Shown: positions 8,836 to 12,272 of the stretch, piece after piece
Layout of the letters: every line of letters begins with the position of its first letter
How positions within the stretch are numbered: the stretch's first letter is position 1
NCBI GenBank assembly: GCA_046758505.1
Contig: JBHIAH010000026.1
Location: 1-28,569 of the forward strand
From: Candidatus Methylomirabilales bacterium
GTDB lineage: Bacteria; Methylomirabilota; Methylomirabilia; Methylomirabilales; CSP1-5
DNA length: 28,569 nucleotides
Reading direction: 5' to 3'
Program-made: the position numbers and the translations under genes
The notes under the pieces: model-generated
Databases searched by the model: none
Told to the model about the DNA's origin: nothing
What the model saw: only the letters and a program-made list of their open reading frames with translations

Positions 8836-8971
8836 GCCCTTCGGGCCGTGCTCCGCCCGGGAGGGCGTCCAAATGGGATGTACGCCACCGAAACTGCCTG
8901 AGGTGGGCCCGAGGGCGATGGTCACGGGCTCATCCTGCTGCCAGCTATAGGGAGGTTACTGCTTTCCGCAT
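8836..8971 (-). repeat. Copy 1 of a ~140-nt duplicated structured non-coding element ending in a terminator-like hairpin
   Basis: Colinear with 12135-12272; first 34 nt (plus strand) match at 32 positions, and GCCACCRAAACTGSCTGARGTGG matches at 20 of 23. Confidence 0.85.
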
Positions 8972-9077
8972 CGCTTATTATCCGATGGCCGCGTAGCGAC
9001 CACGCTTTGCCTCGCGCCATACGGTGTCGGTTCGAGCGGAGAGTTAGGCTGTTATGGTCGGAAACCGTCTATATCTG

Positions 9078-9383
9078 CTAACGGACATATCTTGCCGACG
9101 AAATAACATCTCCAAAATCATAAGGTGCTTCATGGACGTCACCATATTCCCCGAGTTCAAGAGTGATCGAGGCACCAGTGAAATTTGTGTGCTTGAAGAG
9201 TTCCACTTTTTCACCACCCCAGTTTGGTCCTTTATAGACTTTGATAGAACTGACTATGTCGTTGAAGGCGGGACCTTCTTGAAGGTTTCGCTCATCTTTG
9301 ACGAGGTAGTATCGACGACCTCCAAATCCTTTGTGTTGGTACAGCTCTACGACCAGTGGGATGGAGTCGTAATCTTGTGCCAT
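9078..9383 (-). CDS. Single-domain beta/gamma-crystallin-fold protein
   Basis: Two Greek-key motifs: 'VELYQHKGFGG...FNDIVSSIKV' and 'VELFKHTNFTG...FGDVISSARY'; AGGAGG 7 nt before ATG 9383. Confidence 0.8.
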   Translation of the reverse strand: MAQDYDSIPLVVELYQHKGFGGRRYYLVKDERNLQEGPAFNDIVSSIKVYKGPNWGGEKVELFKHTNFTGASITLELGEYGDVHEAPYDFGDVISSARYVR

Positions 9384-9438
9384 TGTCACGCCTCCTCTTG
9401 ACGGTTACTATTTTGATGTGATCGTCCCGCGGCTCGCT

Positions 9439-9828
9439 TTACTGTCCCTCCCTGTAAATGACCTCTGCCGAGTTGCATGGTGACTGGATGGCATGGCGAA
9501 GTGCATCAAGGATTTTGGTCTCCGAGGGGTCGGCGATCTCCTGGCGCCGAGGGCGAAGTAAGGCGGTTTTTCCGTCAGGCGCCAAACCAAGGATAGTCAA
9601 GTTTGGGTATTCGGCGAGGAGATGGGTGAAAAGCGGTGGCTCCTCGTAATCTTCCAAGTCCAGGATGACGGCGTCCGCCTCCCTCTCACTCACCGCCACG
9701 AGAAGTTCCAGCGGTTCGAGAACTTCACACACTACCTCCATGTCTTCCTGGTGCTCAATGATCTTCCTGACCACTTCCCGCATCATCCGGGGACGATTGG
9801 CCAAAAGGATCCTGATCTTCTTCCTCAC
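9439..9828 (-). CDS. Stand-alone atypical receiver (REC) domain protein
   Basis: 'IRILLANRPRMMREVVRKII...MEVVCEV...ADAVILDL...LLAEYPNLTILGL'; REC topology with no output domain. Confidence 0.75.
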   Translation of the reverse strand: MRKKIRILLANRPRMMREVVRKIIEHQEDMEVVCEVLEPLELLVAVSEREADAVILDLEDYEEPPLFTHLLAEYPNLTILGLAPDGKTALLRPRRQEIADPSETKILDALRHAIQSPCNSAEVIYREGQ

Positions 9829-9832
9829 TTTT

Positions 9833-11083
9833 CTATTGCGACCCGCGCCTCTTCAGTTCTAACTCTACCTTGGCCGTTTCCACTTCGAGGCGACGCAATT
9901 CAACCGTGGCCTCATCACATGCCGAACACTTAGACACACTCGCCTCGACATACAGGCCGTCCGTGTCGACGCAATATTCGTAACTGGCACGTAGCCCCGT
10001 TCTACTGGCATCGTCTCGGAGGAAGGCCTCCAACTCACGGTTGAAGTTGTCGAGGATTTTCTTATCTGTTATTGCACCACCCACCTTCTGGAGAAGTTCT
10101 TCCTTAGTTAGCTCCATCACGTCAGGGGGCTCAACAGGAACACGCGCAGGCGGCAACGCTGCGATGCTGATTACCGGGGTGGCAAGCTGGGTGACCCCAG
10201 GGGTGGCAAGTTGGCCAACTGCAGGCTGGGCGAAAGTCTGCAAAGGCGCAAATTGGGCTAGGATGGGTGACTGGGCGGCGACTGTCGGAGTAGGCGCTGG
10301 GGGGGGTGCGCTCAATATCCAGGGTGGTGGAGGAGCGACAACTTGTAAATTGAGATTCTGCCGATACGGACTCTCGGCGCGGAAGGTAACCTCATTAAGA
10401 CGTTCTCTCAGGATAGACGGGTGGGGCAACTGCGGGGCCAGGAAGTCGAACCGTATGTCGGTCAAAATCAGTTCTGTCTTGTACTTCTTGGCCAATTGAA
10501 AGTAGTTGTAGATTACAGGTTGGCACGGATTCGGATTGGTGATCTTGCGTAGCGAGCGATACTGGTTTTGTACCTCCGTCTTGGTATCAATCGAGATATC
10601 GTATTTTCGGCTTACTCTACTTGAGGTTTTCGTGATGATTTCCCTAAAATGCTCTTCGGCTGTCTTCTCTCTGTTGGAATACTCCTGGGTAGATTTGACC
10701 CCGATGCCGAAGATCTCGAAATCCTCCTCTGCAGTGATCTTGAAATTGCTTTCCTCCTCGGAACTCCATTCGTCCCGAGTGGTACTTTGCAGCTCGGACC
10801 GAAATTCGCTCTCCACTGAGCGCTGCTCGTGAAGGGCTCGGCTAAACTTGCTTCGCCGTACGATCTCAATTTCCACCTCTTCTTTGGGAAGGAGGGCCAA
10901 AGAATGCAAGTGTCGTCCTACAGCCAGCCCCAAGAAGCACTTACGTAGGACGTATCGCCTAGTAACTACAATGATGATCGGGCCTAAATTGATCCGGCTT
11001 ATCCTTTTGAAGAAAATCTCCGTGCAGGGTGGGCATTCCAGAAAGTGTTGGCGCGGTACTTCCGCTTCGCATATTTCTATCAC
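9833..11083 (-). CDS. Hypothetical protein (416 aa), possible beta-pore-forming-like fold
   Basis: Long ORF with AAGGAGG RBS before GTG 11083; tightly packed with the downstream gene; Ser/Thr/Glu-rich central segment, Pro-rich linker, CxxC motifs at both ends. ORF is well supported; function is inferred. Confidence 0.8.
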   Translation of the reverse strand: MIEICEAEVPRQHFLECPPCTEIFFKRISRINLGPIIIVVTRRYVLRKCFLGLAVGRHLHSLALLPKEEVEIEIVRRSKFSRALHEQRSVESEFRSELQSTTRDEWSSEEESNFKITAEEDFEIFGIGVKSTQEYSNREKTAEEHFREIITKTSSRVSRKYDISIDTKTEVQNQYRSLRKITNPNPCQPVIYNYFQLAKKYKTELILTDIRFDFLAPQLPHPSILRERLNEVTFRAESPYRQNLNLQVVAPPPPWILSAPPPAPTPTVAAQSPILAQFAPLQTFAQPAVGQLATPGVTQLATPVISIAALPPARVPVEPPDVMELTKEELLQKVGGAITDKKILDNFNRELEAFLRDDASRTGLRASYEYCVDTDGLYVEASVSKCSACDEATVELRRLEVETAKVELELKRRGSQ

Positions 11084-11277
11084 GGCGAACCTCCTTTGCT
11101 GGCGCTCTCCGAAGGAAAACGATGTCGGAGAGAAGCCTTAGCCCCTTGCGACATCATGGCCCGGTTGCGTGGGGCCCCTAGGTTTTCGCGGGACTCTCGT
11201 GGCTCGTTGTTTTCAAGATAAGATATCTATCAACCGCAGGCAATAGACCGTGGTTCCAGATTTGGTCCCATGTGGAC

Positions 11278-11308
11278 AAAAAAAGGGTTCTACGTTTCCG
11301 TAGAACCC
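11278..11308 (-). terminator. Intrinsic terminator after the NarL/LuxR regulator gene
   Basis: Minus strand GGGTTCTACG-GAAA-CGTAGAACCC followed by T7: perfect 10-bp stem and GNRA loop. Confidence 0.8.
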
Positions 11309-11364
11309 ACAGGTGTTAGTGTAGGGAGGTACTGGTACTGAGTACCAGCGAGAGATGGGGGAAT

Positions 11365-12033
11365 TCAGCGGCGGATCATCAGCAAGCCCCGCTCTCTGGC
11401 GTACCGTGCTGCTTCCTTGCGACCATCAAGCTGAAGCTTATCCAGGATCTTATTGATATGATTCTTCACCGTTTGGACCTCTATATCTAGGCGGACGGCG
11501 ATCTCTTTGTTGCTCAAGCCCTCCTCGATTAACGCGACGATCTCGAGCTCGCGACGGGTGAGGCTTGGGAGACCGAGGACCTGGCGGAGTTCCCTTTCCC
11601 GACCTGCCTCGGCGATCCGGGAAAAGAGGAGACCTGTGACCTTGGGGGGACAGAGGGCCTCTCCTGACGCCACCGCCTGGACATTGTTCAGGAGATCTTC
11701 AAGCGATGCCTCTTGCGGGAGGTACCCTGATGCCCCTGCCTCGATGCAGTCCAGCACATCCGATTGCAATTCGGTGAGGCCTATCATCAGAATCTTCGCT
11801 TCAGGAAAAACCCCTCGGATCACGCGGGCTTCTCCGAGACCCTCTCGCCCAGGGAGGCAGAGATCCAGGAGAATGACATCAGGACGCAACGTCTCGAGGT
11901 CCTTCAAAACCCTAGCGGCCTCAGATACAGCGTAGATCGTGCTTGTGGTGGGTTGTTGGGTCAGCACAAAGGCCAGACCCTCCCGAAACAGACGATTTCG
12001 ATGAATGATCAAGACACGGATGGCGTCTTGCAT
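11365..12033 (-). CDS. NarL/FixJ (LuxR-type HTH) response regulator with atypical receiver
   Basis: 'RPDVILLDL.LPG', 'IEAGASGYL', HTH 'LTRRELEIVALIEEGLSNKEIAVRL.IEVQTVKNHINKILDKL'; ATG 12033 preceded by AAGGA. Confidence 0.92.
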   Translation of the reverse strand: MQDAIRVLIIHRNRLFREGLAFVLTQQPTTSTIYAVSEAARVLKDLETLRPDVILLDLCLPGREGLGEARVIRGVFPEAKILMIGLTELQSDVLDCIEAGASGYLPQEASLEDLLNNVQAVASGEALCPPKVTGLLFSRIAEAGRERELRQVLGLPSLTRRELEIVALIEEGLSNKEIAVRLDIEVQTVKNHINKILDKLQLDGRKEAARYARERGLLMIRR

Positions 12034-12122
12034 AGTCCTTACTAATTCCTCTTCATGCCAGATACTTTTCAAGGCAAGGGATTAGAGAGAGGCCCGGGGA
12101 TTCCCACTCGTCTGTGCGTCAC

Positions 12123-12272
12123 ACAAACAAAAAAGCCCTCCGGGCCGTGCTTCGCCCGGGAGGGCGTCTGACTGCGAAGTGCGCCACCAAAACTGGCTGA
12201 AGTGGCTCGGGGATTATGGTTACCCCGGGTTCATTCTGCCACCTGCAACAGGGGGCTTACAGCTCCCCTGAT
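12123..12272 (-). promoter_or_regulatory. Copy 2 of the duplicated element: candidate attenuator/riboswitch-like leader of the LuxR-type gene
   Basis: Lies between a putative promoter (12363-12392) and ATG 12033; ends in GCCCTCCCGGGC-8 nt-GCCCGGAGGGC followed by TTTTTTGTTTGT. Confidence 0.65.

Follow-up and report, generated by a model that had tools for sequence, protein, structure and literature searches.

Each ribosome-dependent attenuator known so far controls a single operon and responds to a single metabolite or drug. In Escherichia coli pyrBI, translation of the leader (pyrL) into an intrinsic terminator prevents formation of the hairpin, with no antiterminator involved (PMC5021804, PMC4824070). 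In the ermC leader, ketolide-induced frameshifting brings frame-changed ribosomes into the spacer, where they unfold the RNA and switch the gene on (PMC5009743). In Bacillus subtilis vmlR, a very short upstream open reading frame (ORF) with its own Shine-Dalgarno (SD) sequence, uORF(MIN), lies upstream of an intrinsic terminator and has a loosely constrained peptide (PMC9226507). We describe a repeated leader element in a stretch of 28,569 nucleotides (nt) from a Candidatus Methylomirabilales bacterium (assembly GCA_046758505.1, contig JBHIAH010000026.1, positions 1 to 28,569), referred to as the window. Two copies of the element lie on its minus strand. A preliminary description had presented them as a riboswitch-like RNA with successive hairpins and a mutually exclusive antiterminator, and had missed the SD sequence and the mini-ORF present in both. 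Judging from sequence, we consider it somewhat better than an even bet that each copy is a ribosome-gated transcription attenuator, in which read-through is brought about by a ribosome in the -1 frame.

Mini-ORF, stop codon and second reading frame

We collected 244 distinct copies of the element, aligned the 220 that scored at least 45 bits and anchored 217 of these. The anchored set holds 33 copies from this genome, and unpublished genomes were excluded from it. Copies whose mini-ORF has a stop at codon 5 are referred to as intact (n = 142). The copies are related by descent, hence all p-values given here overstate significance.

A start codon was found in 197 of the 217 copies (ATG 174, TTG 13, GTG 10) and was missing from 20. 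Pairing with the anti-SD sequence peaks at -14 to -12 across the family. Codon 2 is mostly GAA, AAA or GAC, and E, K, D, N and other residues are tolerated there. Codon 3 is CCG in 190 of 217 copies, and codon 4 is GGG in 182 and GGA in 15. The stop column reads TGA in 74 copies, TAG in 73, TAA in 23 and TGG in 4, so that TGG is avoided (4 of 174 as compared with 34.5 expected from independent column frequencies). After thinning to 171 copies the counts were TGA 63, TAG 53, TAA 18 and TGG 3, and at least 37 parsimony changes of the stop triplet were counted on the tree. Scanning with a pattern that specified neither start nor stop returned an ATG in 21 of 28 matches and a stop in 23 of 28. Between the genes of this genome we found 24 cases of start-NNN-CCG-GGR-stop, and a terminator followed 70-125 nt further on in 23 of them; for sense-codon controls of the pattern it was 4 of 40. 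It is likely, on these patterns, that the mini-ORF is translated.

Other readings of the mini-ORF were not supported. We ruled out selenocysteine insertion at TGA because TAG and TAA are as common. An amino-acid leader of the trp/his type was rejected, as the ORF has four codons with a variable codon 2 and there are no cognate biosynthetic targets. A back-up in-frame stop, present in 90 of 142 intact copies, was weakened as a conserved feature: its third base varies like background, and the A that precedes it is fixed in 131 of 142.

We analyzed which frames are open up to the terminator stem. Among the 142 intact copies the -1 frame was open in 139, frame 0 in 40 and the +1 frame in 88. Stops in the usual -1 register were found in 2 of 105 copies, as compared with 10 of 37 copies where an insertion or deletion had displaced the register (Fisher, p = 2e-5). 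The same control on copies thinned to below 88% identity and followed to the end of the stem gave 8 of 80 and 12 of 31, respectively. There were 55 start-bearing copies without the codon-5 stop, and in 47 of them the ATG frame itself is open to the stem; we call these fused. Some path by which a ribosome could reach the hairpin exists in 186 of the 197 start-bearing copies. Further copies were picked from metagenomes by the middle segment of the element (40, less 7 duplicate or known, 3 unanchored and 1 truncated). The 29 new copies included 17 intact ones, with the -1 frame open in 17/17, 8 fused and 4 other copies, and TGG was found in 0.

Protein-level selection on the -1 peptide was not supported, the third positions being the most conserved. 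Since the peptide does not seem to be selected, the open path and not its product appears to matter. A role of its PP motif, considered in connection with EF-P, was also not supported (75/105 as compared with 26/37). No consistent coupling was seen between the -1 ORF and the gene that follows, with 10 of 90 fused to it and 6 ending at most 12 nt away; the start picker used for this count was biased to late starts and the distances were not used.

The terminator hairpin lies at a median of 52 nt past the stop, with about -25 kcal/mol, and at least 5 T within 8 nt past the hairpin were found in 134 of 142 copies. Its positions are paired at 91-92%, with compensatory pairs (at one position, for example, C-G 106, U-G 65 and U-A 36). 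When eight candidate helices were counted per helix, excess pairing was found in the terminator only. Both window copies have the GC-rich stem (35 nt, -22.5 and -24.7 kcal/mol) and the T-rich tail that had been noted on the minus strand.

Next to the stop there are features that could serve entry into the -1 frame. The stop is preceded by G_GGG or G_GGA in 136 of 142 intact copies, and the final G of codon 3 is kept in 141 of 142. Codon 3 underwent at least 21 changes to other NNG codons and 2 to synonymous codons, and within the G run the wobble position is the only common site of change. Glycine tRNAs with CCC and UCC anticodons are both encoded in the genome. What is looked for in programmed -1 frameshifting, a Z_ZZN slippery motif at the junction and an open second frame, was thus found in 136/142 and 139/142 copies. 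Shifting at G runs before a stop was reportedly described by Weiss in 1987. As the route of entry we tentatively rank highest, though at well below even odds, a -1 slip of peptidyl-tRNA-Gly on G_GGG or G_GGA, which would take place while the stop awaits the release factor.

Nearly as likely would be a restart at the AUA two bases past the stop, or at a GUG overlapping TGA, with the G run acting as an SD sequence. In 99 of 142 copies a -1 frame ATA stands two bases past the stop, and the G run together with the stop pairs with the anti-SD sequence as well as the mini-ORF's own SD. The base before the stop is G or A in 64/64 TGA copies, which gives an NTGA overlap. This overlap is the commonest coupled spacing, and +2 falls within the efficient range (PMC12548453). 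AUA is able to initiate (PMC5499595), and G_GG.G acted as an SD for a -1 AUA (PMC4066793). Re-initiation was reduced when IF3 levels were increased (PMC2268962). Fused copies relax both features (G run 39/47, p = 0.008; ATA 25/47, p = 0.054).

As a separate observation, infC apparently starts at ATC behind a strong SD (L307, about 1490) and prfB has a CTT TGA frameshift site (L235, about 1500). Both usual autoregulatory recoding signals therefore seem present.

Proposed mechanism and alternatives

In the model which we favour, termination would be the default state of the leader. In E. coli, terminators escape repression when the stop lies more than 27 nt upstream (PMC4824070). Release at codon 5 would take place 52 nt upstream, beyond this threshold of about 27 nt, and the ribosome would be too distant to block the hairpin; hence termination would be the default. 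A ribosome that entered the -1 frame would follow RNA polymerase into the hairpin and block it in the manner of pyrBI, where coupling across pyrL prevents termination (PMC5021804). The signal would most plausibly be slow termination, or relaxed translational fidelity or initiation, under stress or slow growth; this input is our guess from the mechanism and the target genes. Dispersed signalling and stress genes would be raised together by that signal, and fused alleles would represent a higher, ungated setting. The fuller claim describes a portable attenuator, spread to dozens of unrelated genes, in which recoding at the stop, by slip or by AUA/GUG restart, would override the terminator, the accuracy of translation termination or initiation would act as a global stress signal for a whole regulon and fused alleles would be always-on mutants. 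To this claim we give rather less than an even chance.

Several observations weigh against the -1 path model. The excess of -1 openness over simulation was clear only for the TGA class (28/28 as compared with 21.7), and was not significant for TAG (26/28 and 23.6) or TAA (11/11 and 9.2). Further, 9 of the 10 control stops sit in TGA copies, and part of the -1 frame is already determined by the pattern that selected the metagenome set. No codon-position signature was seen in the -1 peptide. Insertions joining the ATG to the -1 frame are more frequent than opposite shifts, but only by 14:5 in the main set (p = 0.06), and by 19:5 when the metagenome set is added. Copy 1 of the window has no G run. 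In E. coli, G_GG.G did not promote slippage when a sense codon followed (PMC4066793), and the middle base of the ATA is its most variable one (112/142), which would be unusual in a start codon. A terminator within the first 100 nt of a coding region is functional unless ribosome and polymerase are coupled by a pause (PMC4824070). Nor does the model account for the conserved middle segment or for the 4-bp GGYG/CGCC pairing.

This pairing is central to an attenuator of the vmlR type, which we regard as unlikely. Here a ribosome, either stalled on M-x-P-G or absent from it, would toggle an anti-antiterminator, an antiterminator (GGYG/CGCC) and the terminator, and the open -1 frame would be incidental. 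The uORF(MIN) of vmlR is a precedent (PMC9226507), and the mini-ORF and its SD lie inside possible hairpins. The helix, which the preliminary description had put forward as a GGCG/CGCC antiterminator, is pairable in 92-93% of copies, and its mean probability before the terminator 3' arm exists is about 0.25, with 0.6 in copy 1. However, it does not covary, its probability is 0 in copy 2, and in the full transcript it does not exceed 0.001 in either window copy. Pairing of the terminator 3' arm with upstream RNA has a mean of 0.04 in the full RNA. A blocked ribosome footprint left the helix unchanged (0.25 as compared with 0.26) in equilibrium folding, which ignores kinetics, and forbidding the terminator costs a median of 9 kcal/mol. 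Frame control and fused alleles would have no explanation. A diverged leader before a LuxR homologue in a relative (L231) keeps the SD, M-D-P-G-stop, the spacing and the terminator, while its middle is diverged beyond recognition, and this argues against the vmlR-type reading as well as against riboswitch-like successive hairpins. A ligand riboswitch or a protein-bound antitermination target, whose middle segment would bind a metabolite or protein that stops termination, seems to us improbable. It would fit with the middle-segment sequence, which is conserved beyond the need of pairing, with the lack of an Rfam family and with the many signalling genes downstream (8 PilZ and 9 PAS/GAF/receiver of 112). 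However, no covarying aptamer helices were found upstream of the terminator among the helices counted. Pairing in the upstream hairpins does not exceed what is predicted for independent columns, and a tree-based covariation screen, whose null was inflated, gave no significant pair. Of the hairpins proposed earlier, GCCCG..CGGGC is 75% paired without excess over chance. CCACC..GGTGG is 71% paired in 30 copies, with two middle pairs mostly broken, and its pairing in 220 copies equals the independence expectation; the loop said to be conserved, TCAGSCAGTTTY, occurs in 2 of 217 family members, both of them the window copies. ANTAR-like twin hexaloop hairpins (A1, G4) were absent from 194 of 217 copies and two were found in 1. 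Stop switching and the frame constraint would again be unexplained. A protein acting jointly with the ribosome is possible. Start, stop and reading frame, the signals that are conserved, all belong to translation, and the switch is therefore likely to be a ribosome rather than a ligand. The idea of a new cis-regulatory attenuator was supported, given the absence of an Rfam family, the position before same-strand genes, the compensatory terminator pairs and the retention before LuxR homologues. Its riboswitch-like part was not, as no upstream helix covaries and there is no shared metabolic theme downstream.

The number of copies brings in two more readings. A selfish or inert dispersed repeat, similar to miniature inverted-repeat transposable elements (MITE) or repetitive extragenic palindromic (REP) sequences, or a portable promoter-terminator block, with the mini-ORF as an inherited relic, appears slightly more improbable still. 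It would account for the approximately 47 copies and their clusters (9 in 13 kb on contig C18, with two identical neighbours), the slightly low-GC flanks, the very uneven presence among relatives and the copies that lack a start codon. On the other hand, neither terminal inverted repeats nor flanking duplications exceeded the shuffled controls, the 5' boundary of the element being approximate, and median identity between copies is only 62%. Viral contigs gave 30 pattern matches, none of them a real copy, and no copy was found in the plasmids searched. The next gene is on the same strand for 39 of 46 strong copies (85%), as compared with approximately 56% expected from gap classes, and the element is kept before LuxR homologues. 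The constraint on stop and frame points to selection and so speaks against an inert repeat; nevertheless, such a reading can coexist with the -1 path model. The least probable is action in trans, in which a terminated RNA of 110-140 nt or the tetrapeptide would work as a small RNA or a ribosome/release-factor sink, and the downstream genes would be passengers. A sigma-70-like promoter (TTGACA-17-GATACT-like) ending approximately 25 nt before the ATG was found in 58 of 213 copies and 0 shuffles, and a short RNA would therefore be made by default. The strong same-strand bias, the conserved LuxR linkage and the loose peptide position 2 (E, K, D, N, others) do not agree with this reading.

Window copies, downstream genes and distribution

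The two window copies are colinear direct repeats 3299 nt apart, which agrees with the 3.3 kb given before. Their ungapped match covers 84 nt at 81% identity, and the blastn alignment 144 nt at 75%. GC around the repeats is 0.51-0.56 as compared with 0.63 genome-wide; the window from 8200 to 12500 forms a low-GC block. The gene order on the minus strand is LuxR-type regulator, 416-aa protein, receiver-like protein, crystallin (Table 1). Copy 2 lies 5' of the LuxR gene, as had been stated, and the likely start of this gene is 100 nt past the end of the copy. The promoter before copy 2 fared less well, since 4 sites as good were found as compared with 2.5 in shuffles. Copy 1 does follow the crystallin gene; it is 5' of a 43-codon ORF, for which no family and no second copy were found. 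Copy 2 has both the G run and the ATA, and a second stop in its mini-ORF frame ends at 12214. In copy 1 the Gly codon and the G run are lost and the SD is weak; it keeps GTGA, with GTG overlapping the stop, and ATC.

Table 1. Coordinates of the features described in the window
Feature	Position	Strand	Remarks
Sigma-70-like promoter candidate, copy 2	12363..12392	-	TTGACA, 18 nt, TATTTT; 10/12 matches; weak
Element copy 2, whole family match	12122..12256	-	111 bits; model alignment includes copy 2
5' hairpin, copy 2	12251..12268	-	occupies the place of the -10 box of other copies
SD-like sequence of copy 2 mini-ORF	12239..12244	-	from sequence; family anti-SD energy peak -14 to -12
Copy 2 mini-ORF, M-N-P-G-stop	12220..12234	-	ATG AAC CCG GGG TAA; G_GGG run
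Copy 2 -1 frame	12119..12223	-	34 codons, open through terminator; conserved ATA 12217-12215
Copy 2 intrinsic terminator	12125..12167	-	stem 12167-12133 and T tail; 52 nt past stop
NarL/LuxR-type response regulator	11365..12033	-	likely controlled gene; ATG 12033; ORF called from TTG 12072
Separate terminator-like hairpin past LuxR	11285..11308	-	also in two LuxR homologue loci
416-aa protein, unnamed family	9833..11083	-	between the copies
Single receiver-like domain protein	9439..9828	-	LuxR neighbour in relatives
Beta/gamma-crystallin domain protein	9078..9389	-
Element copy 1, whole family match	8823..8955	-	97 bits
Copy 1 shortened mini-ORF, M-S-P-stop	8922..8933	-	ATG AGC CCG TGA
Copy 1 -1 frame	8731..8925	-	open through terminator; frames 0 and +1 likewise
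Copy 1 intrinsic terminator	8826..8868	-	stem 8868-8834, imperfect T tail; 53 nt past stop
43-codon ORF	8545..8676	-	strong SD; 158 nt past copy 1; possible target or remnant

Four LuxR homologues were found in relatives. One has the full element directly upstream, the second has the diverged L231 leader, for the third the element lies approximately 400 nt upstream, and for the fourth no element was present in the stretch seen. In 9 relatives' loci the LuxR block did not occur beside the radical SAM gene; its placement here therefore looks recent, and the link between leader and LuxR older. In four relatives' loci the LuxR and receiver genes adjoin, and in the window the 416-aa gene thus has the appearance of an insertion between the two. 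The 416-aa protein belongs to a large unnamed family (Atlas 0.97), and the nearest named clusters are aerolysin/ETX-like (0.78-0.79), which is a lead only. Its distant paralogue (23%, E 1.6e-5) lies on C2, directly behind another copy of the element. Elsewhere in the window, 16938-17014 is an intergenic tandem repeat with an 8-nt unit in at least 7 copies.

We identified a Pfam match in 62 of 112 downstream ORFs in relatives. Apart from the PilZ and PAS/GAF/receiver proteins counted above there were 7 TPR and 3 peroxiredoxin-like proteins and many singletons. Targets in the own genome add Usp, CBS-BON and DsbA-like proteins, methyltransferases and GYD. The downstream genes are mostly signalling or stress genes, and neither a shared metabolic theme nor nucleotide-synthesis targets were seen among them. 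One peroxiredoxin-like gene behind a copy (L013:870-1430, minus strand) was called in two pieces; the genome has tRNA-Sec, and the product is possibly a selenoprotein.

Promoter sequences differ between copies. Those without the sigma-70 promoter often show the motif GTCGC 51-59 nt upstream of the ATG, together with a hairpin in the place of the -10 box (window about 9000; C1:133602; C18:31098), possibly a second promoter type. A sigma-54 promoter in the middle segment was found in 1 of 217 copies. In a shortened subfamily (G000 C2:9406, C6:19252, C18:24356, C43:10492) a sigma-54-like GG-N10-GC signature stands directly before the terminator hairpin, and the transcript would therefore start inside the stem.

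The names of protein homologues and of pattern matches place the organism in Methylomirabilales, NC10. An iterated nhmmer search of its genome returned 47 copies (E up to 1e-4), and not only the two first described. By blast, copy 2 had matches in 12 of the 13 genomes of the same genus, unpublished G007 being counted. With a covariance model, matches were obtained in 23 of 151 genomes of the phylum, own genome included: 11/11 in the own family, 9/18 and 2/3 in two further families of the order (unpublished G021 is counted in the latter) and 0/94 in the largest other family of the phylum. This search scored 22 candidates per genome, and a match denotes presence, not copy number. In Rfam 15 the best scores for the window, copy 2 alone and 14 consensus-like loci were far below gathering thresholds, in line with the earlier statement that no known family is matched. 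A likeness to the c-di-AMP riboswitch was dropped, as no Rfam score came near the gathering threshold, and a tRNA origin was ruled out, as there was no match to the tRNAs of the genome. The element is undescribed in the literature searched, a scope which leaves outside most subscription papers and supplementary motif catalogues.

On C18 a stretch of 13 kb (L022, G000:C18:24277-37541) holds nine same-strand copies, mostly one per gene, in a cassette-array-like arrangement; those at 31098 and 32698 have the same sequence, terminator included. Genomes labelled Binatia and Acidobacteriota also have good copies, located on short contigs (L046, L054, L058, L059, L066), which may reflect misbinning or transfer.

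Relation to described systems

If the model is true, the element would be the first attenuator of transcription in which a change of frame acts as the gate, and the copies would form a global regulon run without a transcription factor. There are hundreds of natural variants, with stop codon, G run and second frame all constrained ahead of the terminator, and the natural stop, spacer and fused alleles would be ready-made controls. In its accessible text PMC5009743 names only ermC as a leader frameshift in regulatory use and calls that of pheL incidental.

We compared the family with each of these systems. As in pyrBI, an SD leader, presuming its translation, reaches the terminator, directly in 47/55 copies and through the -1 frame in 139/142; the layout of pyrBI is exactly that of the fused alleles. 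Unlike pyrBI, approximately three quarters of the family copies stop the leader at codon 5 and continue in -1, and there are dozens of copies before unrelated genes, with no nucleotide-synthesis targets seen. The ermC leader also uses frame-changed ribosomes, but it serves one gene, is induced by a drug and controls translation initiation (PMC5009743), while the family has a transcription terminator, a hard-wired G run with a stop and multiple copies. In prfB and E. coli pheL both shifts are +1, prfB makes a protein and the pheL shift is judged incidental; in the family it is the -1 frame that is constrained, without conservation of the peptide it encodes. With vmlR the family shares an ORF of 3-4 codons with an SD upstream of a terminator. 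However, vmlR depends on anti-antiterminator and antiterminator hairpins, and what it controls is an antibiotic resistance factor (PMC9226507), and the family has no such supported helices or targets. In summary, by analogy the family is pyrBI-like, with a further gate by recoding that resembles ermC and prfB, and is a full member of none of these classes.

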